Shown: positions 19,851 through 39,363 of the stretch, in pieces
Layout: every line of letters begins with the position of its first letter
Numbering within the stretch: position 1 is the stretch's first letter
Source of the DNA: Dehalococcoidia bacterium
GTDB lineage: Bacteria; Chloroflexota; Dehalococcoidia; Lucifugimonadales; UBA3495
DNA length: 64,000 nucleotides
NCBI GenBank assembly: GCA_965219925.1
Contig: OZ244795.1
Coordinates: 4,165,049 to 4,229,048 of the forward strand
Direction of reading: 5' to 3'
Made by a program: the position numbers and the translations under genes
Notes under the pieces: generated by a model
Seen by the model: only the letters and a program-made list of their open reading frames with translations
Told to the model about the DNA's origin: nothing
Databases searched by the model: none

Positions 19851-20582
19851 ATGATCAACACGCAATTGGGACGCGACCGGTGGCCGTCGGTGGTGGCGCC
19901 GTCGGTTATCGGGCCTTTGGATTCGCGGGCGGAGCTGTTGCGGGCGCTGGACGCCTTCCGCCGCGGCGTCGCCGGCGCTCCGGTGGTGTGTAAGGGGTCG
20001 CCCGGTATGCCGCAGATTGGAGAAAACGCCCCGTCGGTAAACGGCGCCGGGAGCTACACTCGGCATTCTCCAGCGGACGGGATTCCGTCGGAGGGCGCTC
20101 GGTTAACGGTGGTCGCCTCGACGGACGATGCCGACCGGCACGGCGATACGGTGGCCCTGGACGGCTGGCAACTGGACAACTACCGAAGGAATCCGGTGCT
20201 GCTGTGGGCGCACGATTACGGACAACCCCCCATCGGGCGGGCATCGGAGTTGTGGCGCGACGGCCATGCGCTGGTGGCCCGCATGGAGTTTGCGCCGACC
20301 CGGTTCGCCCAGGAAGTTGAGGGACTGTACCGGCAGGGGTATCAGCGTGGCGTGTCGGTTGGGTTCAGGCCCGTGCGGTTCGAGGAGCGGCGCGACCTGC
20401 GAAGCGGCGCCCTGCTGGGCATCCGGTTTCTGGAACAGGAGCTGCTGGAGATAAGCGCGGTGCCCGTTCCGGCCAACGGGGCAGCCCTGCTGCAAACCAA
20501 CGGCTCCGCACACGCTGACCCGGCGTCGCCCGCGGCATCGCTGGTTTCGTTGCTGCGAACCTGGCGCGGCGCGGCGTGCTGA
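19851..20582 (+). CDS. HK97-family prohead protease
   Basis: DRHGDTVALDGWQLDNYRRNPVLLWAHDYGQPPIG...GVSVGFRP...LLEISAVPVPANG. A GGAGG RBS precedes the ATG. Confidence 0.85.
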   Translation: MINTQLGRDRWPSVVAPSVIGPLDSRAELLRALDAFRRGVAGAPVVCKGSPGMPQIGENAPSVNGAGSYTRHSPADGIPSEGARLTVVASTDDADRHGDTVALDGWQLDNYRRNPVLLWAHDYGQPPIGRASELWRDGHALVARMEFAPTRFAQEVEGLYRQGYQRGVSVGFRPVRFEERRDLRSGALLGIRFLEQELLEISAVPVPANGAALLQTNGSAHADPASPAASLVSLLRTWRGAAC

Positions 20583-20590
20583 CCGCCTTT

Positions 20591-20768
20591 GTCATTGGGA
20601 TCGCAGCGTGGGGGTGGGGACGGGTTTTTACCGGGATGAACAGGATGGACGGGATGGACAGGATTTTTGGGTGTTACGTGTAACGGTATTGCCACGTCCT
20701 TCGACAGGCTCAGGATGAGCGGAAATTCCTCGGAATGACAATGGGGGCTGTGCCCCTGGCAATGACAA
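20591..20768. repeat. composite repeat between the protease and capsid genes
   Basis: tttttaccgggatgaacaggatggacgggatggacaggatttttgggtgttacgtgtaacggtattgccacgtccttcgacaggctcaggatgagcgg. By eye it is about 90 percent identical to 26740-26836. Confidence 0.8.
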
Positions 20769-20799
20769 TTGAAATGAAACGCAAAGGAGTTTTGCAAAT

Positions 20800-22137
20800 A
20801 TGACTCTATCTAACTGGGAAATGGAAACCATCAAAAACGAAGTGGCCGAGGTGCGCGAGTTTTACCGTCAACGCCTCGACGCCGACCTGCCCCCGCTGCA
20901 GGAAGAGATCAGGCGGTTGAGCCAGGCCGTGGCCGATATTACGGAACGCCGCCGCGAGGCCGAGCGTCAGCAGGTATTGGCTCATTACAACGGAGGGGTC
21001 GGGAGCGCCGAGCGCGCGGTGGTTCCCTTCGGCAAGTATCAGGGGATGGACGCACTGGACCTGGCCTGCGTGCGCAGTGTATTGGCAGCGCAGCAGCGGG
21101 AACCGGGCGACGCCGATTCGCGGTCGCTGGAAGCATGGCAGGACAACCTGAAGGCGGCAATGGACAGCGCCACCGCCAGCCGGGGAGATGAACTTGTGCC
21201 CACGGCAGAAGCAGCCACATTGTGGGCCGACGTCAATCTGGACACGCACGTAGCGGCCCTGTTCCCGCGAGTGGACATGCCCACCAACCCGTTCCAGATC
21301 CCGTTGCAACTGGGCGACGTGTCCTGGTATCCGGGCACCGAAAACACCGCCACCACCGATACGGCTTTGTCCACGGCCCGCCAGACCCTTACCGCGTATG
21401 AGCTGGTGGCCGAAGTTCCCTGGTCGCTGACCCTGGACGAGGATGCGGTGATCGCCATGGCCGGCGAGGTGCGCAGTACGCTGGTTCGCAACGCGGTGGA
21501 AGTGATCGACGACGTGCTGCTCAACGCGGATACGACGGCGGTCAACAACATCAACGCTGACACGGCCACTATCGCGGCGTCGGACGCCGGCAAGGGACAC
21601 TGGCTGGTTGGGTTCGACGGCCTGCTGCACCTGCCGCTGGTCGACAACACGGCGCAGGGCAACGACCACGGTGATGCTCCCGACGCCGATATGTACAACG
21701 AGGCGCGCGGGCTGCTGGGCAAGTATGGGGTGCGTCCGTCGGAGCTGGCTTACATCGTGGACGTGAGCACCTACATCAAGTCGCTGGCCGCAGAGGAGTT
21801 CCGCACGCTGGACAAACTGGGGCCACAGGCGACCATCCTGAATGGGCAGCTGGCGCAGGTGGACGGCATACCGGTCATCGTGTCCGAGCAGATGGCCAAA
21901 TCGGATGTGGACGGCAAGGTTACTTCGGGCGGGACCAATGCCAAAGGCCGGCTGCTGCTGGTGAACCGTTCCCAGTGGCGGTTGGGGTTCCGGCGGGAGC
22001 TGATGATCGAAACCACCCGCGACATTCAGAAACGCCAGAACATCATGGTGGTCAGTATGCGGCTGGCTTTCATGGAGCGCACGGGCAACCGGGGAGCCGC
22101 CACCCACACCGCGCTGCAATACAACATCACGGTGTAG
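20800..22137 (+). CDS. HK97-family major capsid protein with N-terminal coiled-coil (delta-like) region
   Basis: 445 aa. The coiled-coil N-terminus is followed by LVPTAEAATLW, FQIPLQLGD, YELVAEVPWS and the GFRRELMIE...MVVSMRLAF capsid-fold C-terminus. It sits directly after the protease. Confidence 0.85.
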   Translation: MTLSNWEMETIKNEVAEVREFYRQRLDADLPPLQEEIRRLSQAVADITERRREAERQQVLAHYNGGVGSAERAVVPFGKYQGMDALDLACVRSVLAAQQREPGDADSRSLEAWQDNLKAAMDSATASRGDELVPTAEAATLWADVNLDTHVAALFPRVDMPTNPFQIPLQLGDVSWYPGTENTATTDTALSTARQTLTAYELVAEVPWSLTLDEDAVIAMAGEVRSTLVRNAVEVIDDVLLNADTTAVNNINADTATIAASDAGKGHWLVGFDGLLHLPLVDNTAQGNDHGDAPDADMYNEARGLLGKYGVRPSELAYIVDVSTYIKSLAAEEFRTLDKLGPQATILNGQLAQVDGIPVIVSEQMAKSDVDGKVTSGGTNAKGRLLLVNRSQWRLGFRRELMIETTRDIQKRQNIMVVSMRLAFMERTGNRGAATHTALQYNITV

Positions 22138-22229
22138 CGGCGGTGCGACGCCCTGAGTTCAAAGCCTTTACCGGCGGGTCTATCTGAAGCAAACGATGGG
22201 TCCAAGACAACGCAATCTGGAGGAATTGG

Positions 22230-23096
22230 ATGGCAAACGCATACGCAGACCTGGCAACTCTCAAGTCGGCGTCGCTGCTGAACGTTGCGGTGGATGACTT
22301 CGACGACCGGCTGCTGGGTCTGCTGGGGAGCGCCTCGCGGTGGATTGATGGCTACTGCGACCGGCATTTTGCGGCGCGACACGCTCGGCTTACTTTCGAT
22401 GGTTCTGGCGATGGTTCCGGAGGCGATTCGCTGGCGGTACCCGACCTGATCGAAGTCAGTTCCATCAGCGTCGGTTTGGGTTCGGGTCGCCGGAGCGAGT
22501 GGTCGGCGGATGACTGGACGTTGTACCCGCTGAATGCGGAACCGGATGAGCCGTGGGGCCGGCCTTACACGCGAATCAAGGTGGCCGCCGGTTCGACGCG
22601 GCGTTTCGTGCCAGGTCCCGGCGCCGTGATCGTCGATGGCGTTTGGGGTTACAACAGACGCCTGGTCGATAGCGGTTGGCTGGTGGCCGACATGGCTCCG
22701 GTGGGATCGGGGGACACCAGCATCGCCGCGGCCGCCGGCAACGGAGTGTCGCCGTTGGCAATTTCAGCCGGACACACCATCCGGATTGACGACGAACAGC
22801 TCTATGTAACCAGCGTGGACCGCGGTGTCGCCGCCGCCACGCTTGGGGTGGAAAGGGGGGTCAACGGCACGTCGGCGGCGGCTCATGCCAGCGGACAGGC
22901 CGCGTCGCTGTTTCGCTATCCCGACGCCGTGGCCGAGGCATGTTTGCTGCTGGCATCCCGCTGGTGGCGGCAGCGGGATGCTGCGCCGTTTTCGGCGGCT
23001 GTGGAACAGCAGGTCGGCGAGTCCGCCGGCGTTGACCGCGCGGTGCAAGGGTTGCTGGAGCCGTTCCTGCGTCGGACGGCGGCCCTGGGGGTTTAG
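22230..23096 (+). CDS. putative head-tail connector/adaptor (gp6-like N-terminus)
   Basis: YADLATLKSASLLNV...DDRLLGLLGSASRWIDGYCDRHF resembles gp6-like connectors. Position after the capsid gene supports this. Confidence 0.5.
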   Translation: MANAYADLATLKSASLLNVAVDDFDDRLLGLLGSASRWIDGYCDRHFAARHARLTFDGSGDGSGGDSLAVPDLIEVSSISVGLGSGRRSEWSADDWTLYPLNAEPDEPWGRPYTRIKVAAGSTRRFVPGPGAVIVDGVWGYNRRLVDSGWLVADMAPVGSGDTSIAAAAGNGVSPLAISAGHTIRIDDEQLYVTSVDRGVAAATLGVERGVNGTSAAAHASGQAASLFRYPDAVAEACLLLASRWWRQRDAAPFSAAVEQQVGESAGVDRAVQGLLEPFLRRTAALGV

Positions 23097-23098
23097 GT

Positions 23099-23524
23099 AT
23101 GCCGAGGATAGCCGCCGCCAGCCGCAGTTACCTGGCGGTCGCGGACGCCGCCGGAATGATGCGCGACCTGTCGCCCTGGTTGGAGAGCGTCAGTCCGCTG
23201 GGGAAGGTGGTGGGTTGGCTGGACGCCACCGGATTGAACGATGTGGCGGGCAGGACGATGTCGGCGACGGAAACGGCCCAGGAATTTGAGGTATCGGGCC
23301 GGTGGGACGATGCGCCCGAATCCAGCCCCGACGCCGTCCTGTCGTCCATCGTGGGCCGGCCGGTAGCAGTGCAATACGGGCCGGCCGGAAGCGCTCCGGG
23401 ACAACGCCGGGTGGCGGGAAGGTTCGTCTGCCTGTCGTACCAAATCTCCAGCCGGTCGGGTCATCCGGTACGGTTCGAGGCGCGGTTCCGGCAGGATGGC
23501 CCGGTTGCGTTGGAGGTGTGGTAG
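23099..23524 (+). CDS. small phage structural protein (tail-tube-like by size and position only)
   Basis: 141 aa, with its start 2 nt after the upstream stop. No motif was recognised with certainty. Confidence 0.4.
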   Translation: MPRIAAASRSYLAVADAAGMMRDLSPWLESVSPLGKVVGWLDATGLNDVAGRTMSATETAQEFEVSGRWDDAPESSPDAVLSSIVGRPVAVQYGPAGSAPGQRRVAGRFVCLSYQISSRSGHPVRFEARFRQDGPVALEVW

Positions 23525-23558
23525 GGATCAACGGTAAGTCCGTAGCCGGCTAATCCTG

Positions 23559-23720
23559 TCACTCCACGTGGCTGCGGGAGTCGCGATTGGCGTCTTTCAA
23601 TTCTTTTAAAATCTGCCTTAGCTCGCTCGAATTCCGCAGCACCACCCACAGTGTTAACATCAGCAGGAGACAAATGAAAGTCAACCAAGCATAAAGCGCG
23701 TAGTCTTCACCGGCAGTCAT
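23559..23720 (-). CDS. 53-aa single-pass membrane protein (not in the ORF track, found by hand translation)
   Basis: MTAGEDYALYAWLTFICLLLMLTLWVVLRNSSELRQILKELKDANRDSRSHVE. Lies downstream of the VWA gene on the same strand, in the same lower-GC patch. Confidence 0.35.
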   Translation of the reverse strand: MTAGEDYALYAWLTFICLLLMLTLWVVLRNSSELRQILKELKDANRDSRSHVE

Positions 23721-23782
23721 AGCAAGATCGAATGGCGGAGGCCAATTGCGACAGTATCGCAGATGACGGCATTACGCGCAAT

Positions 23783-24514
23783 TTAGTACGCCGGTATGAA
23801 ACTGCCGCCAGTAGCATCAGCAAGAAGTTGGAGCATCTGTTCGTCCGCATCAGCTCCGAAAGCGACGGTATCTACTGGGACCGCCGATTGCACCAAGTCG
23901 TCAATCGTTGCTTGGTAGACCTCGAAATCGGTAGCCAAACCGTCTGACATGAGCACGATCCGGTTCTCCCGGCAGACGGTTTTGCTGAAAAGGAGCCAGC
24001 GGGATTGTTCCTGGCATAGGGGTCGGTCCGGGAGCATTCGCTGAGCTTCCTGCAAAGCCGTAAACATGGCGGTTCTACCACTTTGAGCGGCAAAAGATGG
24101 AATTGCGGTGTCCCAGGGCGCTGTGTCAGGTTCAGTGAAGTCAAACAGCAACTGAGCTTCGTCACCAAACATCAGCAACGCTATTTCGCTATTGTCGGTA
24201 GGTTTGTTGGCTAGTTCACGCAATGCCTCGTGCAACGGCGACAATTTGTCCATCATGCTATCGGAATCGTCCACCACGTAAACAACCATTGCATCATCGG
24301 TAAGCAGTGCTGGTAGGACGGCCTGAATTGGAGCCGGCACACCACTGACGATCCCGTCCGATTCATTGAGAACGTACCCGGCGCCGATGATAAGCAGCGC
24401 TAGCAACAGGAGGAGGAGCAGTATCCAGGGCCATTTTCGACGACGATTTGGACCCCCAGGCTCTTGTGAAAGCCAAAGTACGCTGGGGTTATCAATCATG
24501 TAGCAGGGCCCCAC
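23783..24514 (-). CDS. membrane-anchored von Willebrand factor A (VWA) domain protein
   Basis: N-terminal TM WPWILLLLLLLALLIIGAGYVL, MIDAS motif VVDDSDSM, and further TAMFTALQEA, IVLMSDGLATD and VDTVAFGADAD. Confidence 0.85.
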   Translation of the reverse strand: MGPCYMIDNPSVLWLSQEPGGPNRRRKWPWILLLLLLLALLIIGAGYVLNESDGIVSGVPAPIQAVLPALLTDDAMVVYVVDDSDSMMDKLSPLHEALRELANKPTDNSEIALLMFGDEAQLLFDFTEPDTAPWDTAIPSFAAQSGRTAMFTALQEAQRMLPDRPLCQEQSRWLLFSKTVCRENRIVLMSDGLATDFEVYQATIDDLVQSAVPVDTVAFGADADEQMLQLLADATGGSFIPAY

Positions 24515-24606
24515 TCTGACGGAATTCGGACACTGACGCGGTCATTGTACAGGAAATGGGTACAGCAATTGCGCGGTGAGAAATATTTTTGGAGGTAAAG
24601 GACAAT

Positions 24607-26655
24607 ATGACAGGTGTTTTGGATAAGTTGGCCGTCAGGTCGGCTGGCTTCTCTGCCGCCGCCCCGGCGCTGCGCTGGCAGGTTCTGGTGGACTGGTTCG
24701 GGGACGGATTGTGGAACGCTGAAAACGTGGACGATTCCGACGACCTGGCCGGCGTTCGCTGGCGCTGGGGTCGCGTCGGGTTGCCCGTTCCCGAGTTTGT
24801 CGGGCCGGCCACGCTGGAACTGACGCTGAAGAACCCGCGGCATCGCTACACGCCGGGCAGCCTGACGTCTCCGCTGGCCGGCCATGTTGCCCCGGGGCGC
24901 GAGGTTTGGCTGCGGGCCGGGTGGCTGTATGATGACTTTGAGACCGATACCGGCGCTGCCGAGGAACTGGACGGTCGCGCAACTACTTATGGAGCCGCGC
25001 GGTGGGAAGCGCTGACAACCCCGGGCAACGGGTTTCATGCGTCCGGCGGCGAGGTTAGAGGACGGGTCGGACGCGGCGTGCCGTCGGCGGCCCTGGCGGT
25101 GGTGGAAACCGGAGATCCCCTGGCGACGCTCATCGTCCGCTACCGGCGGGTGAGTGACGGGATGGGTGGATTCGGACTGCGATGCGCGTCGCTAACCGAT
25201 TTTCTGCGGCTGCGGTTCACCGACGACATGACGCTGTTGGAGCGAGTTTCCGGAGCATCGGCAACGGCGCTGGCGACCGGCGACGCGCTGGCCGGATCGG
25301 TTTGGTATGAGCTGGAAATCGTGCCTGACGGTGTTGGCGTGGCAGTGTACGCCACCAACCTGGAGTCGGCGGGCGTGGTGCGCAGCGAGGTTCTGTCGGC
25401 AAGCGACGTCGGTGATGCGCCGCAATCGGGGCGGCACGGCATCTGGCACGGTTTCCGAAATTCGGTTGATCGATGGGGACCGTTCCACGTTGGCCGCAGT
25501 CTCTTCAGCGGCAGCATCACTGCAATCGAGCCGGACGGCGCAGCGGGAGTATGCCGCGTGTCGGCGGTGGATGCGTCGGCGCGGCTGGACGGTGTGCGCC
25601 TGTTCCGTCAACTGGCCGGCGGATTAATGCGCTCGGGCTCCGTCGCCCGCGCCATACTGGACTGGGCGGGCCTGGACGCCGGGGACATCGGCGCCGACGC
25701 CGGCAGGGTGTTGCTGACCGGTGGGCCGCGCCCGGTGTGGGACGTTTCGGCGGGCCGGGCCCTGCGGCAACTGCAGCGGGAGGAACACGGGTTGATCTAC
25801 GTCGATGGCCTGGGCCGTATGCGGCTGGAAGCGGCGGCGGCGCGCTCGGCCATCCGCGCCAGTGATGCCCCGACTGACCTCGCCCGCACCTCGGTGGGCG
25901 ACACCGCCGGCGGAAACACGGCGTACGCCTTGGGGATGATCTGGGACAGTGGAACCGCCGCCATCGAATCCGAGGTTACCTTTCGTTACTTCCGTCCCGT
26001 GGACAATGGCCGCCAGCAGATTTGGACTTTGCCAGAGCCGCTCACCCTGGAGCCACAATCCGGGGAGACGCTGCTGGCCACTACCGACGACTACGAGGCC
26101 ATCACCGGTGTGGAAATTCCCGCCAGGGCGACGGATTTTGAGGCGACGGCCAACGCCGACGGGACCGGGGATGATGTTACCGATTCCGTGACGGTTGAGC
26201 CGGTGGCGGAAGCCGAATCTGCCGTGGCCGGCCGGGGAGTTGCGTTGTGGATTCGCAACGACTCAACGAGCGTTGCGTATCTGCAGCGCCTGGAGGTTTA
26301 CGCGGGCCATTGCTGGCGGGCTTCCGCAGAGGTTGCCTACCGGGCCGATGTACCGAGGGGTTCCCCGATCAGCCGGGTGGTGGAGTGTTGGTTCACTGAC
26401 AACTACGCCGCGGCCAGAGAAACGGCGGACGCCCGGCTGAATGATCGATCCGTCGCCCGACCGCAGCTGGAGATTGCGTTGCCGTTGGTCAGTTGGGCCA
26501 ATCTGCGCGCAGTGGTGGAGGCCCGGTTGTCCGACGTGGTCGCAGTGCAGGCGACAACGCAAAGCATCAGCGGGGCGTGGCTGCTGGAAGGCATGGAGAT
26601 AAATGCGGTGGTGGGATCGCCCCCGGCGGCCCGGTGGTGGCTGACGCAAGTGTAA
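24607..26655 (+). CDS. large phage tail-like structural protein (distal-tail/hub-like, function unresolved)
   Basis: 682 aa after a GGAGG RBS. The segment ALRQLQREEHGLIYVDGLGRMRLE resembles a motif common in phage tail/baseplate proteins. Its position at the end of the structural block supports the call. Confidence 0.5.
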   Translation: MTGVLDKLAVRSAGFSAAAPALRWQVLVDWFGDGLWNAENVDDSDDLAGVRWRWGRVGLPVPEFVGPATLELTLKNPRHRYTPGSLTSPLAGHVAPGREVWLRAGWLYDDFETDTGAAEELDGRATTYGAARWEALTTPGNGFHASGGEVRGRVGRGVPSAALAVVETGDPLATLIVRYRRVSDGMGGFGLRCASLTDFLRLRFTDDMTLLERVSGASATALATGDALAGSVWYELEIVPDGVGVAVYATNLESAGVVRSEVLSASDVGDAPQSGRHGIWHGFRNSVDRWGPFHVGRSLFSGSITAIEPDGAAGVCRVSAVDASARLDGVRLFRQLAGGLMRSGSVARAILDWAGLDAGDIGADAGRVLLTGGPRPVWDVSAGRALRQLQREEHGLIYVDGLGRMRLEAAAARSAIRASDAPTDLARTSVGDTAGGNTAYALGMIWDSGTAAIESEVTFRYFRPVDNGRQQIWTLPEPLTLEPQSGETLLATTDDYEAITGVEIPARATDFEATANADGTGDDVTDSVTVEPVAEAESAVAGRGVALWIRNDSTSVAYLQRLEVYAGHCWRASAEVAYRADVPRGSPISRVVECWFTDNYAAARETADARLNDRSVARPQLEIALPLVSWANLRAVVEARLSDVVAVQATTQSISGAWLLEGMEINAVVGSPPAARWWLTQV

Positions 26656-26687
26656 GCGCAAGCGTTCATCGCAATAACGGGAGACAT

Positions 26688-26890
26688 TCTCACCCTCACC
26701 CCAACCCTCTCCCATCAAGGGAGAAGGGGAAGGAGCGGGTTTTTACCTGGATGAACAGGATGGACCGGATGGACAGGATTTTTGGATGTTATGTGTAACG
26801 GGATTGCCACGTGGTTCGACAGGCTCACCATGAGCGGCCTGCGCTCCTCGCAATGACAGGGGGTAGGGGGCAACGGGGTTGCCACGTCGC
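26688..26890. repeat. composite mosaic repeat after the tail-like gene
   Basis: Contains tcaccctcaccccaaccctctcccatcaagggagaagggg, then ttttacctggatgaacaggatggaccggatggacaggat (26741-26779), then gattgccacgtggttcgacaggctcaccatgagcgg, then ctcctcgcaatgac. Confidence 0.8.
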
Positions 26891-26941
26891 TGTGGTATCA
26901 TCGGATACGCAAAATTGCCTGCTGGCCGTTGAGGTGCCGCA

Positions 26942-28447
26942 TTGCCTGCTAATGACAATATCTATGACGTAATCGTGGTGGGAGCCGGAAACGCCGCGCT
27001 GTCTGCCGCCATCGCCGCCCGCGAGCAAACCGAGTCGGTTTTGGTCCTGGAAAAAGCGCCGGAGTATTTCCGAGGTGGGAACACCTACTTCACCGGCGGC
27101 ATCATCCGCTTCGCCTATAACGGCCTTGACGACATCAAGGGGCTGATACCCGACATGTCGGAAACCGAGGCCAACTCCATTGAGGTAGGGCAGTACACGG
27201 CCAACCAGTTTTATGACGACATGATGAGAGTTACCCACGGCCTGTCCGACCCGGAGCTGGCTGAGATTCTGGTGAGCCAATCGTATCCCACCATGAAATG
27301 GCTCCAGGAGCATGGCGTCCGCTTCGTGTTGTCCTTCGGACGTCAGGCGTTCCGCGACGGCGACAAATTCCGGTTCTGGGGCGGGTTGGTGGTCGAAGCG
27401 GTTGGGGCCGGCAAGGGGTTGTCTGATCAACAGTTCGACGTGTGCCAGGCGTTGGGCGTAGAAGTCCGTTATGCCACCGAGGGCATTTCGCTAATCCAGG
27501 ACCAGCGCGGAAATGTGGCTGGCCTTCGTGTCAAGGGACCGGAAGGTTTCGAGGATCTGGCGGCTCGCACGGTGGTGTTGGCGGCCGGCGGTTTCGAGGC
27601 CAATGCCGAGATGCGCTGCCGGTATCTTGGTCCCGGCTGGGAAACCGTCAAGGTACGCGGCATCCCGTACAATACCGGCGACGGCATCCGCATGGCGCTG
27701 GACATAGGCGCGCAATCTTACGGGCACTGGTCATCGTGCCACGCCGTGGCCTGGGACATGAATGCTCCCACCTTTGGCGACCGCACGGTAACCGAACTGT
27801 TCCAAAAGCACTCGTATCCCTTCGGCCTGATGGTAAACCTCGACGGTGAGCGCTTCCTGGACGAGGGCGCCGACTTTCGCAACTACACCTACGTAACCTA
27901 CGGACGGGCGCTGATGGATCAGCCCCAGGGTCTGGCATTCCAGATTTTCGATGAGAAGGTGAAGCACCTGCTGCGCGACGAATACTGGATTCCCCAGGCA
28001 ACCACCGCCGAGGCCAATACCATCGAGGAACTGGCGCGGCTGCTGGACATCGATCCAGTTGGCCTGGTGCGCACGGTCGAGGAGTACAACGCCTCGGTTC
28101 GCACCGACATTCCATACAACGCCACCGTGAAGGACGGACGCTGCACGGAGGGCCTGGAGGTCAACAAAACCAACTGGGCCGAAACGCTGGATACCCCGCC
28201 GTATCGCGGGTGGGCGGTAACCACGGGCATCACGTTTACCTTCGGCGGCGTGAAGGTGAACAACCGGGGACAGGTGGTGACCAACGCTCAGGAACCGATC
28301 CCGGGTCTCTATGCGGCCGGTGAAATGGTGGGCGGGCTGTTCTACCACAACTACCCCGGCGGCAGCGGCCTGAGCGCCGGTATGGTGTTCGGACGGCTGG
28401 CCGGCGACAGCGCCGGCACGGACGCGCTGGTGGCGAAAGACGTGTAG
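26942..28447 (+). CDS. FAD-binding dehydrogenase (TcuA / fumarate-reductase flavoprotein-like)
   Basis: YDVIVVGAGNAALSAAIAARE, FRGGNTYFTGG, VVLAAGGFEAN and GLYAAGEMVGGLFYHNYPGGSGL. Confidence 0.85.
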   Translation: MPANDNIYDVIVVGAGNAALSAAIAAREQTESVLVLEKAPEYFRGGNTYFTGGIIRFAYNGLDDIKGLIPDMSETEANSIEVGQYTANQFYDDMMRVTHGLSDPELAEILVSQSYPTMKWLQEHGVRFVLSFGRQAFRDGDKFRFWGGLVVEAVGAGKGLSDQQFDVCQALGVEVRYATEGISLIQDQRGNVAGLRVKGPEGFEDLAARTVVLAAGGFEANAEMRCRYLGPGWETVKVRGIPYNTGDGIRMALDIGAQSYGHWSSCHAVAWDMNAPTFGDRTVTELFQKHSYPFGLMVNLDGERFLDEGADFRNYTYVTYGRALMDQPQGLAFQIFDEKVKHLLRDEYWIPQATTAEANTIEELARLLDIDPVGLVRTVEEYNASVRTDIPYNATVKDGRCTEGLEVNKTNWAETLDTPPYRGWAVTTGITFTFGGVKVNNRGQVVTNAQEPIPGLYAAGEMVGGLFYHNYPGGSGLSAGMVFGRLAGDSAGTDALVAKDV

Positions 28448-29259: not shown

Positions 29260-29278
29260 GCGAGTGTACGATAACAGC

Positions 29279-30475
29279 ATGGTAGATGAGATCTTTCAGT
29301 GGCAAGACTTTGATGTCAAGCTCAGCCAAGCATTCAGCCCGGCTACCGCAATCAGCCGCAGCGTCCTGTTTCATGGCCGGCGGGCTATTATTCGGCGCCT
29401 AATTGACGCCGTGAATCAAGCCGGCCAGCACGCAATTATCTACGGGGAGCGCGGGGTAGGCAAAACCTCCCTGGCTAACGTGCTGTCTGATTTTCTACAA
29501 CCATTTACCTCGGAAGCCATCGTCAGTGCTCGGTTCAACTGCTATGGGGAAACAACTTATCGTCAGATATGGGAATCATTATTCCGAGAGGTTGGTCTGC
29601 CAACAAAGGAAGAGTTTAGTCCGTTCATTGTCAGCGATGTGGTTGACACACTGCGCCGGGATGAGGATCGAAAGTTGATACTCATTATCGACGAGTTCGA
29701 CCGCATCCAAGACCCGGATATAGATACTCTGTTCGCCGATACCATCAAAGCGTTGTCAGATTTTAATGTTGATACGACGCTGATTGTGGTAGGCGTTGCT
29801 GACGACGTCGATGACCTGATTGAGGAACACCAGTCAGTTGACCGCTGCTTGGTTCAAATACATCTGCCTAGAATGCCTACGGACGAACTTATGGAAATCG
29901 TCAAATCCGGCATTTCCACAGCCGGGATGGAAGTGTCAGATGATGCGGTATCGCAAATCTGCGCCATATCTTTGGGGCTGCCCCACTATGCTCATGCTCT
30001 AGGACTTGCCTCTGGAAGGGCTGCAATCGATGTAGAAAAACTGCGCGTAGAAAACCGTCATGTAATCAGCGCGATTGAAACGTTCGTTGAAGAGTCGCAA
30101 CAAACTATGCTTCGCGAGTTCGACTTGGCTACAGCCAGCCCTCGCCGGGAGAATTTCTACTTCAAAGTGCTCACGGCTTGCGCTTTGACGCCGACTGATG
30201 ACCTTGGCTGCTTCCGCGCCGCTGACGTTCGCGAACCGTATTCCCATATTATGGGGCAAGAAATGCGAATCCCCAGCTACGGACGGCATCTACACGGGCT
30301 TAGCGAAGAAGATAGGGGCGCGATACTGCAAAGGCTGGGACGGCCTCACCAGTACCGGTTTAGATTTTCTAACCCACTAATGCAGCCCTATGTGCTGATG
30401 CGGGGTTTGCAGCGAAAACTGCTCAACTTGGAGGATATTGCCACTTTCACGAATCATGGAAACGTGATTCTGTGA
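29279..30475 (+). CDS. AAA+ ATPase (ORC/Cdc6- or Arch_ATPase-like) with a C-terminal winged-helix-like region
   Basis: Walker A GERGVGKTSLANV, Walker B LILIIDEFDRI, and a C-terminal YRFRFSNPLMQPYV. Lies in a low-GC patch. Confidence 0.75.
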   Translation: MVDEIFQWQDFDVKLSQAFSPATAISRSVLFHGRRAIIRRLIDAVNQAGQHAIIYGERGVGKTSLANVLSDFLQPFTSEAIVSARFNCYGETTYRQIWESLFREVGLPTKEEFSPFIVSDVVDTLRRDEDRKLILIIDEFDRIQDPDIDTLFADTIKALSDFNVDTTLIVVGVADDVDDLIEEHQSVDRCLVQIHLPRMPTDELMEIVKSGISTAGMEVSDDAVSQICAISLGLPHYAHALGLASGRAAIDVEKLRVENRHVISAIETFVEESQQTMLREFDLATASPRRENFYFKVLTACALTPTDDLGCFRAADVREPYSHIMGQEMRIPSYGRHLHGLSEEDRGAILQRLGRPHQYRFRFSNPLMQPYVLMRGLQRKLLNLEDIATFTNHGNVIL

Positions 30476-31135: not shown

Positions 31136-31720
31136 ATGACCGCCACTGTCGCACAGTCCCAAATCGTTCGCCGCCTGTTCACCGTGGCCGAGTACATGGC
31201 TATGGGCGAGGCCGGCATTCTTGGGGAAGATGAACGAATTGAACTGCTGGCCGGCGAGATAATCAAAATGGCGCCTATTGGGAACCCACACCTCTTTTGC
31301 ACCGATGCGCTGAATATGCTGCTGGTTCCGGCTCTGGTGGGGCGGGCCGTGGTGCGGGTGCAGGGTTCCATACAGCTGGACGACTACGGCGCGCCGGAGC
31401 CGGATATTGTCCTCCTGAGACCACGCCCCGATTACTATGCGGGGTCGGCGATGCCTGCCGATGTGCTCTTACTGGTAGAAGTTGCCGACAGTTCCCTCGA
31501 ATACGACCGTGGCTTTAAGCTGGCCCTCTACGCCGCCGCCGGCATTCCCGAGCTGTGGATAGCCAACCTGCGCACGGGCGAGGTGGAAACCTGCTCCAAC
31601 CCGGCAGGAACGGAGTACACCAGCGTCCGCACGGTTTCAGCCGACGGCAGCATCAGCCCGCAAGCCTTTCCCGATATGACTCTGGAACTCCGCCAATTTA
31701 TGCCCCCGGTGGCGCAGTAG
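31136..31720 (+). CDS. Uma2-family (DUF820) putative endonuclease
   Basis: FTVAEYMAMGEAGIL...RIELLAGEII.MAP.G..H, PDIVL, LLLVEVADSSLEYDR and AAGIPELWI. Confidence 0.85.
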   Translation: MTATVAQSQIVRRLFTVAEYMAMGEAGILGEDERIELLAGEIIKMAPIGNPHLFCTDALNMLLVPALVGRAVVRVQGSIQLDDYGAPEPDIVLLRPRPDYYAGSAMPADVLLLVEVADSSLEYDRGFKLALYAAAGIPELWIANLRTGEVETCSNPAGTEYTSVRTVSADGSISPQAFPDMTLELRQFMPPVAQ

Positions 31721-31862: not shown

Positions 31863-32073
31863 CTCACACGTACCCACTTTGTCAAACCAAACCAGCCTAC
31901 TGTCATCGCCAGTAGCGCCCACTCCCACCTGTCATTGCGAGGAGCGCAGCGACGTGGCAATCTCGTTGAGGTTGAGTAGACGTCGGGTAACCATCATTGC
32001 TGCGGCGACGAGATTGCCAACCCCCGCATCGAGTACGGGGTCGCAATGACAGATTACAGTGTGTACGCGTGAG
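31863..32073. repeat. MITE-like ~210-bp element with 22-bp terminal inverted motif CTCACRCGTACCCACTTTGTCA
   Basis: Left end ctcacacgtacccactttgtca; internal gtcattgcgaggagc...ggcaatctcgttgagg...cgacgagattgcc hairpin; a degenerate right end closing in gtacgcgtgag at 32073. Confidence 0.7.
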
Positions 32074-33444: not shown

Positions 33445-33487
33445 TTGCCCGGGACGGGTTTGGCCCAATCTGCCGTGCGCCCCGGCT

Positions 33488-33590
33488 GGGGTAGGGAGAG
33501 GGGGACTGCCGTTTTACATCGATGGACAGGGTGGACAGGATTGGAGGGGTTCACCCTCACCCTAGCCCTCTCCCATCGAGGGAGAGGGGA
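33488..33590. repeat. repeat block between the two MFS genes
   Basis: ttttacatcgatggacagggtggacaggat (33512-33541) followed by tcaccctcaccctagccctctcccatcgagggagagggg. Confidence 0.8.
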
Positions 33591-33698
33591 CATTGTCAAC
33601 CGTCGTAGTAGCGCCGATTGGCGCCAGCCTGCTATGATTGCACGACTACGCGACGGTTGCAGCTGCCGCATAACGTCCTTCCAAACAAGAGAGGGCAA

Positions 33699-35174: not shown

Positions 35175-35209
35175 CGGCCTGGTCAGCGCTACGGCGCGAG
35201 GTAACGGAG

Positions 35210-35497
35210 ATGGCTAGCATAGTGATGAGCTTCGTGTTCGCGATGGTGGGCGGGCATCATGGCGAGGCCGACCCAACGCTGCTGCAATGGATCATGCGGG
35301 CGCTCGACCACATCCTGATTGGGGGATTTGGCCTTTCGCAGCTAACCATCGTAATCGGCATCGGCCTCATCATTATTGCAATACCTGCGCTGATCGTAAT
35401 TTCCTACTGGGCCGGAGCGCGTCGGGCTCAGCGCGCCACGAGTGAAATGGGCGTGCCCGGCACGGAAGTGAGCGTTTCTACCGACGCCCATGAATAA
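35210..35497 (+). CDS. small hypothetical membrane protein
   Basis: 95 aa with the hydrophobic core ILIGGFGLSQLTIVIGIGLIIIAIPALIVISYW. Confidence 0.4.
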   Translation: MASIVMSFVFAMVGGHHGEADPTLLQWIMRALDHILIGGFGLSQLTIVIGIGLIIIAIPALIVISYWAGARRAQRATSEMGVPGTEVSVSTDAHE

Positions 35498-35681
35498 TGC
35501 TCCAGGGAAAATCGATTTAACTATGATTAGATGCTTGCCGGCGGCGTCGATTGAGGGTAATATACCCACTGTTGCCATATATACGAACGCTGAGGCGCCG
35601 GGCATCCGGCCCGTGGCTTCCCGGTGGCGGCACAGGCGAGCCGTGAGGCTCCCGACAATCTGGAGGAGGTAACAAGCCAAT

Positions 35682-35876
35682 ATGTTCGACAAGGATTCGC
35701 TGGACCGGCTGTTTGAAGAGCTGCGAGACGAGTTCGAGCTGGAAACCGATTGGGAAGAGATTCAACGGGATGCGCATCTGGCGGTTGCCTACGCTGATGC
35801 CGGGGTTCTCGATGACCAGAGCGGAGCCCTCGACTCGCGTATCGTTGATTACGTTGTGCGCCATAACCCCAACTAA
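35682..35876 (+). CDS. small acidic hypothetical protein
   Basis: 64 aa. A GGAGGAGG RBS lies upstream and a strong terminator lies downstream. Confidence 0.4.
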   Translation: MFDKDSLDRLFEELRDEFELETDWEEIQRDAHLAVAYADAGVLDDQSGALDSRIVDYVVRHNPN

Positions 35877-35921
35877 TTCGCCCTAATTGAACCGGATGCT
35901 CGATCCGGTTGGGTCGGTTAC

Positions 35922-35952
35922 CCCCCGTTGGCAATGCCAACGGGGTTTTTTA
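35922..35952 (+). terminator. Rho-independent terminator
   Basis: ccccgttggc / gccaacgggg stem followed by tttttt. Confidence 0.75.
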
Positions 35953-35958
35953 TCGTCA

Positions 35959-36222
35959 TGTCATTGCGAGCGCAGTGTGCGGGTACGCCCCTCACCCCCG
36001 GCCCCTCTCCCGCCGGGAGAGGGGAGAAAATGCGCCGGGGGCCAAAATCTGTCATTGCGACCCCGTACTTGATACGGGGGTGGCAATCTCGTCGGCGTAG
36101 CAATGGTGGTTTGCCGACGTGTGTTCAACCTCAACGAGATTGCCACGTGGTTCGACAGGCTCACCATGAGCGGTTGCGCTCCTCGCAGTGACAGGTGGGG
36201 CTGGGCGCTCCTCGCAATGACA
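35959..36222. repeat. mosaic repeat block upstream of the terminase block
   Basis: tgtcattgcgag...cccctctcccgccgggagagggg...gtcattgcgaccccgtacttgatacggggg...ggcaatctcgtcg...caacgagattgccacgtggttcgacaggctcaccatgagcgg...ctcctcgcaatgac. Confidence 0.8.
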
Positions 36223-36336
36223 ACCGAATGACTCTGCAATGCTGACGCTGGCGCGTTGACGCTACGGATGGCGACTGTTTAGCGTGTTTACTGTGGCGAC
36301 GCACCATATTTTGAGCGCCACGAACATGAGGTAACA

Positions 36337-36576
36337 GTGCTGAATTGCCGACGATGCCAGGGTATGACCCTGCTGGAACTGGCCCGGCTGGGCCGAGGAG
36401 ACCACACGGTATTCCGCTGCCGGACGTGTGGGTTCCTGTTCAGTCCTCCGGACACCGACCTACGGGGACACCACGGGGTGGACGTGCTACCATCCGCCCC
36501 GCCCCGGAAATCTGTCGAACTGCGGGTTAGCCGAGTCAGGATGCCAGGCGATGACCGAACCACGCCGTTGCGTTAG
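36337..36576 (+). CDS. zinc-ribbon small protein translationally coupled to the large terminase
   Basis: CRRCQG...FRCRTCGF gives two CxxC pairs. The GTG start follows a GAGG RBS. The stop overlaps the TerL GTG (TAGTG at 36574-36578). Confidence 0.45.
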   Translation: MLNCRRCQGMTLLELARLGRGDHTVFRCRTCGFLFSPPDTDLRGHHGVDVLPSAPPRKSVELRVSRVRMPGDDRTTPLR

Positions 36577-37955
36577 TGGCTCCCCGGGGCCCTACCGAAG
36601 CATCCGCCACTCGCTCCGAGACCCAACCGCCGGTTCCCCTGGACCCGGAAGACTTCGCCAGCCAGGTGCTGGGCATAAACCTGTGGTCGAAACAGCGGGA
36701 GGTGCTGCGAGCGGTGGCCTGCCACCGGCGAGTGGCAGTGAAGTCGGGCAACGGGTTGGGCAAAGATTTTACCGCTGCCGTGGCAGTGTTGTGGTACCTG
36801 CATCAACACGACCCTGCCATTGTGCTCAGCACCGCTCCCACCTTCCGGCAGGTGCGGCATGTCCTGTGGCGTCAAATACGGGGACTATACCGCCGGGCGT
36901 CGGGCGCTGTGGGGGGCGAACTGTTGGACACGCGCCTGGAACTGGCCGGGGACCGTTATGCTCTGGGCCTTTCGTCCACCGGCGCCGACCAGTTTCAGGG
37001 GTTTCACTGCCAGAATATGTTCATCGTGGTGGACGAAGCCGGCGGGGTCAGCGAACCCATCTACGAGGCCATCGACGCAATCATGACTTCGGCCAATCCG
37101 CGCCTGCTGCTCATCGGCAATCCAACCACGCCGTCCGGGGCGTTCCACCGGGCGTTTTACCAGGAGAGCGGCATCTACGAAACGATCACCATATCGGCGC
37201 TGGAATCGCCCAACGTGGTGGCTGGCGCCGTGGTGATTCCGGGATTGACGACCGCCGAATGGGTGGCCGAGCGCCGGGCGGTTTGGGGTCAGGACAGCCC
37301 GGTGTACCGGGCGCGCATCCTGGGGGAGTTTCCCGACCGGGCGGAGGACTCGTTGTTCAGCGTTTCTGACATCGAAGCGGCGGTCATGCCGACGGATGCC
37401 CCCGGGTATCGCGACGTCGCAGGACGGGAACCGGTGATGATCGGGGTGGATGTGGCCCGATACGGCAGCGACCGGAGCGTAGTGTTGGTGAGACAGGGCG
37501 ACGTAGTGCAGGATATTCAGGTGTATCCCCGGCTCGACACCATGGAGTTGGTGGGACGCGTCATCACGACGGTGCGCGAACGTACCCCCGAGCTGGTGAA
37601 CGTGGATGAAGTGGGACTTGGCGCCGGCGTGCTGGATCGCCTGCGGGAGTTGGGAATCCAGGCCCGCGGCGTGAACGGAGCGGCGCGCCCGTTTCTTGAC
37701 TCTATCTGCGGCAACCTGCGTGCCGAGGGTTACTGGTCGCTGCGGGAAAGATTCCAGAACCGCCGCATTCGCATACCCAGAGACGCAGAACTGATGGCTG
37801 AATTGGCGGCGTTGCGCTACCGGATCAACAGCAGTGGCAAGGTGATGATTGAGAGCAAGGAAACCATCAGAGGACGCGGTCTCCCGTCACCGGACAAAGC
37901 CGACGCCCTGATGCTGGCATTTCTGAAGGATGTCCCGCCGGTTGCGCTCTTGTGA
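36576..37955 (+). CDS. phage terminase large subunit
   Basis: P-loop-like KSGNGLGKDFTAAVAVLWYL, Walker B MFIVVDEAGGV, and a C-terminal nuclease-like GVDVARYGSDRSV. The portal gene follows. Confidence 0.85.
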   Translation: MAPRGPTEASATRSETQPPVPLDPEDFASQVLGINLWSKQREVLRAVACHRRVAVKSGNGLGKDFTAAVAVLWYLHQHDPAIVLSTAPTFRQVRHVLWRQIRGLYRRASGAVGGELLDTRLELAGDRYALGLSSTGADQFQGFHCQNMFIVVDEAGGVSEPIYEAIDAIMTSANPRLLLIGNPTTPSGAFHRAFYQESGIYETITISALESPNVVAGAVVIPGLTTAEWVAERRAVWGQDSPVYRARILGEFPDRAEDSLFSVSDIEAAVMPTDAPGYRDVAGREPVMIGVDVARYGSDRSVVLVRQGDVVQDIQVYPRLDTMELVGRVITTVRERTPELVNVDEVGLGAGVLDRLRELGIQARGVNGAARPFLDSICGNLRAEGYWSLRERFQNRRIRIPRDAELMAELAALRYRINSSGKVMIESKETIRGRGLPSPDKADALMLAFLKDVPPVALL

Positions 37956-38058
37956 CCGTAACAGGACCGGGCTTCAAGTGAACCCTCTGAGCCAGGGATC
38001 AGGACACCCGGGAACAATTCTCAACGAGGTTACTTACTCATGATGAGGTTACTTACCC

Positions 38059-39363
38059 ATGCCCAATGAAGCACGAAACCTGAACCATCTGGTCAGGTCG
38101 TTGGCCACCGCTTTGATACCGAGGTCACGACCGGGTGCCCACAGCGCGTCAAACTCGAAACCGACCAGCCCGTTCCCGAGAGTCGAACGCGCCAGCCGGG
38201 CCGCATTCGCCGAACGATGCGCCGCCGAGGAAGGTTTGCCGGCCGGTGAAGGATGGGCGCGCCCGGAGTATGGGCGATACATGGCTACCTCGCCGTCGGT
38301 GTATTCGGCGGTCAAGTTGCGCGCCGATGCAGTTACCCGGCCCCCGTTGCTGGTGTATCGCCACGATGCCGGAAACAGCGGCGGCTTCGGCAGCGCAACG
38401 TCGTCCCGGCTGCGCACCCGGGTCGAACCGACCCATCCGGTGGTGCGCCTGCTGGAGCGGGTCAATCCGTGGTACACCCGCGGCGACCTGTGGCGGGCCA
38501 CCGAGATTTACCTGTGCCTGTGGGGTGCGGCGTTCTGGGCCATCGAGCGGGGCGACGACGGCGAACCGGAGCTGTGGCCGCTGCGTCCTGACCGCATGGC
38601 GGTGATCCCCGACCGGCGACGATACGTGCGGGGGTTCGTTTATCGCGGGAACGCCGACCCGGTGGCATACACGCCCGAAGAGATCATCTGGCTGCGCTAC
38701 TTCAATCCCATGGAGGAGCTGGCGGGTTTGTCGCCACTGGCGCCGGCGCGGCTCTCGGCGGACATGGGGCACGAGGGGCTGCTCTTCAACCGCAACCTGC
38801 TGCGCAACTCGGCGCGCCCGGATTTTCTGCTGCTGACCAACCAGGAGATGAACGAAACGGAGTTGGAGGAGTTCTACACCCGTTGGGAGTCGCGCTACCA
38901 GGGGGCGGACAAATCGTACCGTCCGGCGGTCGCATCGGCGGTGCGCGACGTGAAGACGCTGGGGTTGTCGCACCGGGATCTGGACTTCATCCAGGGGCTG
39001 CGCTGGAGTCTGGAGGAAGTTAGCCGCACGTACGGCGTGCCGAAAGTGCTGCTGGGCGATTTTGAGCGGGCTACCTACGCCAACGTACAGGCCGCCGAGC
39101 GAATGTTCTGGCGCAACACCATCGTGCCCGAGGTGCGGTTCCTGGAAGAACAGCTGAATCGGGTGCTGCTGCCGCGCCTGGGGTATCCCGAACTGACGGT
39201 GGAATTCGATCTGTCGGTGATCGAAGCGTTGCAAGAGGACGAAAACAGCCGAGTCCAGCGTGAAACGGCGCTGCTGGATCGTGGCGTCCTCACCATCAAC
39301 GAGGTGCGACGGGAGCGCAACCTGCCCGAAGTGCCGTGGGGCAACGGGCAGCAGGACGGGTAG
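38059..39363 (+). CDS. phage portal protein (HK97 family)
   Basis: NPWYTRGDLWRATEIYLCLWGAAFW, ELWPLRPDRM, FNPMEELAGLSPL and RTYGVPKVLLGDF. Confidence 0.88.
   Translation: MPNEARNLNHLVRSLATALIPRSRPGAHSASNSKPTSPFPRVERASRAAFAERCAAEEGLPAGEGWARPEYGRYMATSPSVYSAVKLRADAVTRPPLLVYRHDAGNSGGFGSATSSRLRTRVEPTHPVVRLLERVNPWYTRGDLWRATEIYLCLWGAAFWAIERGDDGEPELWPLRPDRMAVIPDRRRYVRGFVYRGNADPVAYTPEEIIWLRYFNPMEELAGLSPLAPARLSADMGHEGLLFNRNLLRNSARPDFLLLTNQEMNETELEEFYTRWESRYQGADKSYRPAVASAVRDVKTLGLSHRDLDFIQGLRWSLEEVSRTYGVPKVLLGDFERATYANVQAAERMFWRNTIVPEVRFLEEQLNRVLLPRLGYPELTVEFDLSVIEALQEDENSRVQRETALLDRGVLTINEVRRERNLPEVPWGNGQQDG

Follow-up and report, generated by a model that had tools for sequence, protein, structure and literature searches.

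Two dispersed blocks of HK97-type head, packaging and tail-tip genes kept by Dehalococcoidia: a candidate gene-transfer-agent-like system

The gene transfer agents (GTAs) described so far include RcGTA of Rhodobacter capsulatus and its alphaproteobacterial relatives, BaGTA, VSH-1, Dd1 and VTA. Experimentally shown GTAs are few and, to our knowledge, come only from Alphaproteobacteria, Desulfovibrio, Brachyspira and Methanococcus. The RcGTA-like family is encoded by a head-tail cluster of 15-17 genes, and PBSX-type particles are phage-like bacteriocins which package host DNA. Our literature search brought up no report of a GTA or of a conserved capsid locus for Chloroflexi, Dehalococcoidia or SAR202, in agreement with an earlier note on the DNA studied here, which had stated that, to its author's knowledge, no such element is described for high-GC, Chloroflexi-like genomes. 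This DNA is a stretch of 64,000 nucleotides from a Dehalococcoidia bacterium (GenBank assembly GCA_965219925.1, contig OZ244795.1, positions 4,165,049 to 4,229,048 of the forward strand), called the window throughout and numbered from its first letter; it has ~60% G+C and most of its genes lie on the + strand. It carries two same-strand blocks of phage-type genes, block A (19851-26655, +), with protease, capsid, head-tail adaptor, tube-fold protein and tail hub, and block B (36337-39363, +), with a Zn-ribbon protein, the large terminase TerL and the portal. We argue that these genes very probably form a selected, vertically inherited system and, with a good deal less assurance, that the two blocks are on balance an anciently domesticated head, packaging and tail-tip module of an HK97-type siphophage which makes a DNA-packaging particle. 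That such a particle transfers genes is a tentative proposition, and we hold it to be somewhat doubtful.

The window gene set, some small open reading frames (ORFs) excepted, was searched against Pfam and a subset of it against PHROGs, with NCBIfam models in addition, and the earlier assignment of two HK97-type blocks and of their genes held in these searches except for the Zn-ribbon protein, read from the arrangement of its four Cys, and the hub, which was recognised from a structural model. Block A opens with a prohead serine protease of the S78/HK97 type (243 aa, 19851..20582, +; PF04586, 6.6e-9, 36.5 bits against a gathering threshold (GA) of 21; phrog_80, 5e-20), followed by an HK97-fold major capsid protein (445 aa, 20800..22137, +), which matched PF05065 over residues 133-423 (32 bits, GA 24.2) and TIGR01554 (59 bits, cut-off 27.5). 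The N-terminal extension of ~130 aa in the capsid protein would correspond to a delta or scaffold domain, and no separate scaffold gene lies beside the capsid and S78 protease genes, as befits the HK97 type. Next come the head-tail adaptor (288 aa, 22230..23096, +; phrog_442, 1.4e-18, residues 2-142), a tail-tube-family protein (141 aa, 23099..23524, +; phrog_10528 'major tail protein', 6.8e-11, full length) and the tail hub or Tal-like tip protein (24589..26655, +), which has 688 aa if read from the TTG at 24589 or 682 aa from the ATG at 24607. Block B begins with the Zn-ribbon protein Znr (79 aa, 36337..36576, +), which starts with GTG, overlaps with its stop the start of TerL and occupies the position of the small terminase TerS; it is followed by TerL (459 aa, 36576..37955, +; phrog_2, 3.2e-40) and an HK97-type portal (434 aa, 38059..39363, +; PF04860, 4.4e-67, 227 bits, GA 39.1; TIGR01537, 151 bits, cut-off 112), for which an exact-sequence database look-up gave no record. 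Judged by portal, capsid with protease, and TerL alike, the head and packaging genes clearly belong to the HK97 type, and they do not make up an encapsulin locus, as portal, TerL, protease and tail proteins are present and co-conserved. Znr had no family match in Pfam, PHROGs or NCBIfam; its residues C4, C7, C28 and C31 are invariant in 60 orthologs and its C-terminal half is variable, and it may be a substitute for TerS or a regulator. As the earlier note had said, the window ORFs scanned against Pfam and, for the subset, against PHROGs include no gene for integrase, repressor, lysis, replication or tape measure. The small ORFs of unassigned family near the blocks, scanned against PHROGs together with the antisense cassette of block A described below, gave no phage-family match.

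The 688-aa protein had no sequence-family match, and a sequence search of PDB gave nothing useful for it or for the tube protein. Its orthologs are unnamed proteins of 664-705 aa, mostly 52-58% identical to that of the window, with two close relatives at 90-96%. An AlphaFold2 model built on 39 orthologs (mean predicted local distance difference test score, pLDDT, 78.9; predicted template-modelling score, pTM, 0.73) was compared with PDB by Foldseek and matched the Mu gp44-type hub (3d37, 3cdd), spikes of extracellular contractile injection systems (eCIS) and of the VgrG type, siphophage Tal and central-fibre proteins with E values of 7e-8 to 1e-5, a range which also holds the resemblance of an internal domain to lectin, CBM66 and ERGIC-53 folds. 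The same comparison with BFVD returned one full-length viral match (TM-score 0.72/0.70) and many siphovirus minor tail and tail fibre proteins. On the strength of this model we read the protein as a tail hub of the Tal-like tip kind with a carbohydrate-binding domain similar to ConA and CBM66 lectins. A single-sequence AlphaFold2 model of the 141-aa protein was discarded (pLDDT 40.6), and, given this unusable model, its assignment to the tube family is based on the PHROG 10528 match and on a relative in the phage-like contig L100 with 29% identity and a score of 3.4e-30, whose gene has that of a 244-aa tube paralog on one side and the tape measure gene on the other. In the adaptor, positions 153-233 of the ortholog-alignment profile match a chain of Tip attachment protein J (8rk3, 1.8e-5), which we read as an inserted or C-terminal small domain that is also present in tail proteins.

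The tube and hub genes of the window are separated by an antisense gene with a VWA domain (23783..24514, - strand; PF13519, 3e-12). A minus-strand cassette recurs at this place among the relatives, with a SlyX-like protein of ~100 aa, a PaREP1-like protein of ~240 aa, a VWA protein of 230-266 aa and an ORF of ~220 aa (window 23525-24588; L070 12774-14358; L071 12694-13888; L109 12762-14954; L110 12937-14947; L112 12766-15527). It consists of the VWA gene only in the window and is absent in L068/L069; by this comparison the window gene is a remnant of the recurring cassette. Five relatives carry in addition a 387-aa Fic_N/Fic gene (phrog_5978, 1e-94) 3' of the hub and on its strand (L070 16666-17829; L071 16450-17613; L109 17228-18391; L111 16253-17416; L112 17971-19134), a gene that the window and L068/L069 lack.

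When one genome of each GTDB species was scanned, orthologs of the portal turned up at 67 loci on 67 contigs, one each, with 60-97% identity, and all 67 genomes are Dehalococcoidia, 'Chloroflexi' or SAR202 metagenome-assembled genomes (MAGs). At least 120 clusters at 90% identity were listed for the portal, at 71-99% identity and many on contigs of 3-8 Mb, and at least 120 clusters were listed for the capsid protein, whose orthologs are 70-98% identical over the full length and lie on Mb-size contigs; the lengths of the capsid-bearing contigs match those of the portal-bearing ones. The host lineage which keeps the module, as far as these matches tell, is one clade within Dehalococcoidia, with SAR202-type MAGs of sponges and soils among its members. 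The order Znr-TerL-portal was met in ~60 of the 67 portal loci, and protease or capsid genes followed the portal in none of the 64 loci that extend 9-10 kb past it. Since it is common to all these 64 loci, the split between the two blocks is, on this comparative evidence, ancient. Both blocks could be located on seven relative chromosomes, where they lie on opposite strands 16 kb (OY282494.1), 356 kb (OY282456.1) and ~160 kb (OY843611.1; shorter arc, if the record is circular) apart, or on the same strand at separations of 109 kb (OY760687.1), 110 kb (OZ242004.1), 152 kb (OZ220699.1) and 1.03 Mb (OZ247430.1). Block A of the relatives has the content protease-capsid-adaptor-tube-(variable antisense cassette)-hub; in the sponge-metagenome contigs L079-L083 no adaptor-tube-hub part follows protease and capsid, so that block A itself is split there.

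The host genes around the two blocks are also shared. Block A of the window is preceded by genes for aconitase, a FeeM/aminotransferase fusion, a glyoxalase and a NadB-like flavoprotein, the last of which precedes block A in five relative loci as well. It is followed by a tcuA-type FAD dehydrogenase (26942..28447, +; NF006130, 570 bits, cut-off 369), a host gene outside the particle set, which is 92-97% identical to its relatives with a ratio of nonsynonymous to synonymous substitution (dN/dS) of 0.04-0.10; in seven relative loci, too, tcuA adjoins block A on the right, and in L043 and L062 it adjoins block B on the left. After tcuA come a low-GC island with a STAND NTPase and a Uma2 gene and then two major facilitator superfamily (MFS) transporters, the genes between the blocks being those which the earlier note had described. 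Just upstream of block B lies a conserved acidic ORF of 64 aa (35682..35876, +), which tblastn found in 36 block-B loci at 58-95% identity, every time on the same strand and upstream of Znr, and which had no match in Pfam, PHROGs or NCBIfam. The locus L043 has tcuA directly followed by the 64-aa ORF, Znr, TerL and portal, and L062 has the same order together with a hub-like gene upstream. Because these two loci keep tcuA adjoining block B, the window order, with block A, tcuA and then block B, is probably the older one, and the larger separations would be later rearrangements with breaks between tcuA and the 64-aa ORF. Downstream of block B the window has luciferase-like monooxygenases, tRNA-Gly(CCC) (41572..41646, +; Rfam and ARAGORN) and an alpha/beta hydrolase, and the relatives have a Na/Pi cotransporter, S15, PNPase, an alpha/beta hydrolase and tRNA-Gly. 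Of 44 block-B loci scanned, 30 have this tRNA gene 3' of the portal (L001-L003, L006, L008, L012 and L015 among them), with a distance of about 150-350 bp in L002, L045, L050, L058 and L063 and with the tRNA gene on the opposite strand in L049, L050, L053, L061 and L065; the tRNA gene may mark an ancient integration site or may be plain host synteny. Around block A the relatives carry defence-type genes (MmeI, HicA, SLFN/AlbA, Uma2 and Fic). The VWA gene, the 64-aa ORF, the tRNA gene and the promoter module described below are points beyond the earlier note.

Selection on the genes was estimated by the Nei-Gojobori method (NG86) between the window and eleven relative loci. The dN/dS was 0.10-0.22 for the portal, 0.11-0.15 for the capsid protein, 0.16-0.24 for TerL, 0.20-0.41 for the Zn-ribbon protein and 0.22-0.46 for protease, adaptor, tube and hub, as compared with 0.04-0.33 for flanking host genes, and the dS of the phage-derived genes (0.7-1.4 in most pairs) was about that of the host neighbours in the same pair. 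In 55 orthologs of TerL the Walker A (KSGNGLGKD), Walker B (VVDEA) and nuclease Asp motifs are invariant or nearly so. TerL is covered to 80% or more by one ORF in 54 of 63 loci, and the portal likewise in 68 of 73. When genomes are compared in pairs, identity in the portal correlates with identity in the Na/Pi transporter (r = 0.89 over 32 genomes) and in the hydrolase (r = 0.94 over 20 genomes; Mantel p <= 0.001 in both), and the mean identities of portal (0.85) and Na/Pi transporter (0.86) point to similarly slow evolution. The comparison of synteny and dN/dS which the earlier note had proposed as a check thus came out with ratios well below 1 and with host synteny kept. Two further observations on TerL were made: L016, L052 and L057 have an in-frame insertion of ~50-100 codons between the ATPase and nuclease halves, and L001 has an apparent frameshift near 8845-8947.

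The nearest phage-like relatives of the module are metagenome contigs. L096 and L098-L100, whose capsid proteins are 47-48% identical to that of the window, have the canonical order TerL-portal-protease-capsid. L100 (Ga0208315_1000427; capsid protein 48% and portal 46% identical to those of the window) carries in addition DNA polymerase/primase-like and ParB-methyltransferase genes, an adaptor, a tail terminator, Neck1 and a tape measure of 638 aa, and it has two tube paralogs of 244 aa and 142 aa, the latter being the relative of the 141-aa window protein. Its tape measure, Neck1 and terminator have no homolog in any fetched locus except for one terminator-like gene in L085 (capsid protein 71% identical), where it lies between adaptor and tube; the window's clade has none there. 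These intermediates suggest to us that a siphophage was pared down in steps until head, motor, adaptor, one tube-fold protein and hub were left. The spacer between portal and protease in L096 and L098-L100 holds a TTGACA-N17-TAGACT site and a hairpin with a T-run. As phage-like contigs already hold this promoter-like site and hairpin between portal and protease, the domesticated set was cut where an operon boundary existed beforehand.

Both blocks of the window are headed by the same promoter-like module, TGACRC-N6-7-GTTGAC-N18-TAGSCT in summary. The copy before block A, P_A (19696..19738, +), reads TGACAG-N7-GTTGAC (-35 at 19709-19714), an 18-nt spacer and TAGGCT (-10 at 19733-19738) and starts ~155 nt before the protease ATG; P_B (36243..36285, +) reads TGACGC-N6-CGTTGAC (-35 at 36256-36261), an 18-nt spacer and TAGCGT (-10 at 36280-36285) and starts 94 nt before the GTG of Znr. 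The pattern TGAC[AG]-N6-8-[AGC]TTGAC has exactly two matches in the 64 kb, both strands searched, against 0.43 expected, and both are at block heads; in 1.70 Mb of relatives 60 of 90 matches of the module are at a block head, and among 64 relative loci there are 49 cases in which it stands no more than 400 nt before the Znr/TerL head. Upstream of Znr in 60 genomes it takes the form TGAC(A/G)C-N6-7-(G)TTGAC(G) with a spacer of ~17-18 nt and a TAGSCT or TATAxx box, and the protease gene, too, has this architecture before it, in the window as well as in 10 relative loci. No third copy was found upstream of the hub in the window. Since the same module heads both blocks, we infer that the block A and block B operons would be co-regulated.

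Between P_A and the protease start lies a leader hairpin (19761..19807, +) with a stem of 8 + 10 bp followed by T5 (GCCGGTGGGACTGACC...GGGTCGGTyCcGCCGGC plus T5). The 119-nt leader 19735-19853 folds with -62.2 kcal/mol (z = -6.3), and the U.G pairs of the hairpin are possible on the sense strand only. It is kept in 11 of 11 block-A loci, and its core and T-run recur in the block-B leaders of L040, L044, L045 and L047. It had no match in Rfam, which found only tRNA-Gly in the whole window, and a scan of IMG/VR with the hairpin for further blocks gave 0 matches. It resembles an intrinsic terminator, which suggests that read-through into block A would be regulated. In L079-L083 (for example L079 6854-8896) promoter, leader hairpin and first protease codons are duplicated around an inserted gene for a 463-aa PT-rich membrane protein; this extra copy of promoter and hairpin was considered as a new member of the regulon and rejected, as it is the duplicated 5' end of the protease gene around the inserted gene.

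Among 49 block-B promoters of relatives, 24 have a perfect GAAC-N4-GTTC between -35 and -10 (L006-L008, L010, L011, L013, L017, L019, L021, L022, L024, L026-L030, L033, L035, L038, L042, L056, L059, L064 and L067), and these are 24 of the 46 such sites in all fetched DNA. GAAC-N4-GTTC is the LexA box of Gram-positive bacteria, the LexA/Cheo-box consensus (PMC4234289). In the block-B promoters it lies 4-5 nt after the -35 TTGAC and about 60-110 nt upstream of the Znr start, with a variable spacer and arms that are kept. There are 12 further near-matches among the 49, 11 of them GTAC-N4-GTTC over the -10/start region and one, in L031, GAAT-N4-GTTC at the -35-proximal position; neither form is present in the block-B promoters of the window, L001-L005, L054, L055 and L058. 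GAAC-N4-GTTC is also the LexA box of Dehalococcoides. The box suggests SOS (DNA-damage) control of block B in part of the clade.

Combined together, clade-wide single copies, host synteny, low dN/dS, divergence that tracks the host and conserved catalytic motifs give comparative support to the second possibility raised in the earlier note, a maintained packaging machine of GTA type, and they carry our reading of the blocks as an anciently domesticated module. A mechanism may be proposed as follows. A regulator of the host or of the element would turn on both operons together; the LexA-type box would add DNA-damage control in many relatives, and read-through of the block-A leader terminator would be a further control point. 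Portal, protease and capsid protein would assemble a procapsid, for which the ~130-aa N-terminal extension of the capsid protein would serve as scaffold in the manner of HK97. TerL, perhaps with the Zn-ribbon protein, probably translationally coupled to it, in place of TerS, would fill the procapsid with DNA. The adaptor would close the head, and a ring of the tube-fold protein with a trimeric, lectin-bearing hub would form a very short tail or plug. Such a particle, to judge from its genes, cannot be an infectious or self-propagating phage, because no replication, integration or lysis genes lie near either block, the coverage in relatives being up to 10 kb on each side of a block. Packaging of host DNA in the manner of a GTA is most likely, as its most economical function. 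That the whole clade makes a minimal GTA particle from at least two dispersed operons, with one dedicated promoter, read-through of a leader terminator and SOS wiring in many lineages, is a bolder idea, which we put forward as a speculation with rather less than an even chance.

Several points weigh against the domesticated, particle-forming module. The support is wholly comparative, and particle, packaging, transfer and transcription are predicted from it. For a canonical siphovirus tail the set of tail genes is too small, with tape measure, Dit, terminator and chaperones all missing from the DNA examined, and neither a recognisable TerS nor lysis genes turned up there; the remaining tail, TerS and lysis parts may be elsewhere in the genome or may not exist, the known blocks being already up to 1 Mb apart. 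The antisense VWA gene parts the hub of the window from the tube gene, with no copy of the shared promoter before the hub. Losses occur: L063, a close relative, retains only the last 110 portal codons (10001-10330), the portal of L054 is interrupted by ~1.4 kb (8318-10771), L023, L050 and L053 have no TerL within 10 kb, the L023 portal being intact, and TerL and portal of L062 carry several frameshifts, possibly long-read errors. The dS values of 0.7-1.4 in most pairs are near saturation and make the dN/dS ratios approximate, none of which approaches 1, and the host genes used for co-divergence are linked neighbours and not genome-wide markers.

The alternative that survives best is that the module, as a particle or only as some of its proteins, was domesticated for a purpose other than gene transfer, as a PBSX-like killer particle after DNA damage, as an anti-phage decoy or agent of assembly interference, or as a carrier of other cargo; a PBSX-like defective particle or another exapted role is the main competitor of GTA-like packaging. 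It rests on the same conservation evidence, and several features speak for it: the LexA-type box in 24-36 of 49 block-B promoters of relatives, which recalls SOS-induced defective prophages, the extreme reduction of the tail with its lectin-bearing hub, and the defence-type genes which cluster around block A in relatives. However, the ATPase and nuclease motifs of TerL and the portal are among the best-conserved parts, which argues that DNA packaging itself is selected. We consider a domestication unconnected with gene transfer to be rather unlikely, if still deserving of serious attention.

A decaying prophage remnant, recently split by recombination between flanking repeat copies, was the other possibility raised in the earlier note, and it now looks very improbable. 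The two copies quoted there as marking the break edges are real and inverted (19674-19691, +, and 39373-39390, -), the window holding 5 matches when up to 3 mismatches are allowed (0.08 expected), but they belong to a MITE/REP-like family (miniature inverted-repeat or repetitive extragenic palindromic elements; cores GTCATTGCGA, GATTGCCAC and ACAAAGTGGG) which clusters at six intergenic sites (19381-19691, 26690-26892, 31869-32055, 35985-36223, 39373-39585 and 41340-41494) and so flanks both blocks on both sides, without being specific to those edges. The family is confined to 19-42 kb of the window, the other 42 kb holding one isolated 10-mer at 14227; related cores reach up to 24 copies per 21-kb locus in some relatives and are absent in others, and the exact 18-mer of the window repeat occurs in none of the 112 fetched loci. 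A recent repeat-mediated rearrangement was rejected on these grounds, together with the split in all 64 extended loci. Truncated or interrupted genes in some relatives and the lack of integrase and lysis genes would suit decay, whereas the arrangement of the blocks varies among genomes, dN/dS stays at 0.1-0.46, the genes are single-copy across the clade with invariant catalytic motifs, and the portal-protease junction of phage-like relatives already has its promoter-like site and hairpin. More improbable still is a mobile capsid-forming satellite, like the capsid-forming phage-inducible chromosomal islands (cf-PICIs), or an active prophage with other modules outside the window, since, although head and packaging genes with few tail genes resemble such satellites and IMG/VR lists as viral seven short contigs with the capsid gene, no integrase, att duplication, replication or regulatory module lies beside either block in the window and the inspected relatives, the chromosomal neighbourhood is fixed across species, and blocks up to 1 Mb apart are incompatible with excision as a unit.

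The window has further features besides the two blocks. Two perfect direct repeats of 152 nt (44624-44775 and 50198-50349, 5,574 bp apart) have the look of att-type ends of an integrated island, and the segment between them holds a DndB-like gene (44969-46141) and a thiamine pyrophosphate (TPP) enzyme (47796-49463, minus strand). Low-GC islands with defence-type genes lie at 28.5-31.8, 42.9-46.1, 49.5-52.5 and 59.7-61.4 kb, with a STAND/AAA NTPase (29264-30475), Uma2 (31136-31720), a DNA methylase (42921-43892), an HNH protein (51436-52209), a Vsr fragment (52217-52540) and an AAA_15/AAA_21 ATPase (59676-61391); the first of these islands is apparently missing from the 97%-identical relative L001. 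A duplication of ~1 kb at 56766-58703 (repeat families D2-D6, 73-95% identity, spacing ~995 bp) runs from the end of the second cation-efflux gene through a Uma2 gene into the 3' end of a GFO/IDH/MocA oxidoreductase gene, and an ORF for a DDE transposase is at 8475-9158 (PF01609, 1e-14).

If the domesticated module does act in gene transfer, it would be the first GTA-like system in Chloroflexota, one reduced to head, packaging motor, adaptor, a single tube-fold ring and a hub with a lectin domain, and it would provide a route of gene exchange for an abundant and hard-to-grow lineage (SAR202-type; sponges, soils and the deep ocean). It would also show the limit of tail reduction and gene scattering that is compatible with retained selection. 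The shared promoter and leader hairpin give a handle for locating the rest of the regulon in complete genomes and for co-expression tests in existing metatranscriptomes, and the element is evidently mis-called as a provirus, seven such fragments being in IMG/VR.

Compared with described systems, the locus is not an intact temperate prophage, as its blocks are dispersed, over up to 1 Mb in relatives, and the window ORFs scanned do not add up to one contiguous genome furnished with integrase, att sites, immunity, replication, a full tail and lysis. It shares with cf-PICIs a small head and packaging set of its own with few or no tail genes; those are mobile, with integrase, att sites, replication and helper-responsive regulation, whereas here none of these was found and the genes are fixed, split and set in a neighbourhood conserved across species. 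With the HK97-like siphophage L100 it shares homologous TerL, portal, S78 protease, capsid protein, adaptor and tube-family protein, and L100 differs from it in being contiguous, in canonical order and furnished with extra replication-like and tail genes, the window order being circularly permuted or split. Like PBSX of Bacillus it would specify a chromosomally fixed, phage-derived particle that is unable to propagate, and the LexA-type box parallels the SOS induction of PBSX; unlike the two small dispersed blocks with a minimal tail seen here, PBSX is contiguous over ~28 kb and has a full contractile tail, lysis genes and its own regulators. The locus does not belong to the RcGTA family, since only generic HK97 models and no GTA-named NCBIfam model matched and the gene content differs. 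As against GTAs in general, it appears to be of independent origin, its nearest relatives being siphophage-like contigs of Chloroflexota type; its packaging block stands apart from the head block, and a complete delivery apparatus with lysis was not found in the DNA examined. The tail genes there are limited to adaptor, one tube-family protein and hub, those for tape measure, terminator, Dit, megatron-type and fibre proteins being absent, which makes the tail set much more reduced than in any characterised GTA. What it has in common with GTAs is a set of phage-derived HK97-type head-tail genes that are a fixed part of the host chromosome, are passed on vertically under purifying selection and have no replication or integration functions beside them; with RcGTA in particular it shares a distribution over more than one chromosomal locus, and its control may be host-like as well. 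On this comparison we rate it as a domestication that apparently took place independently and brings in a new phylum, its architecture being unusually reduced and scattered and its promoter and leader module a dedicated one.

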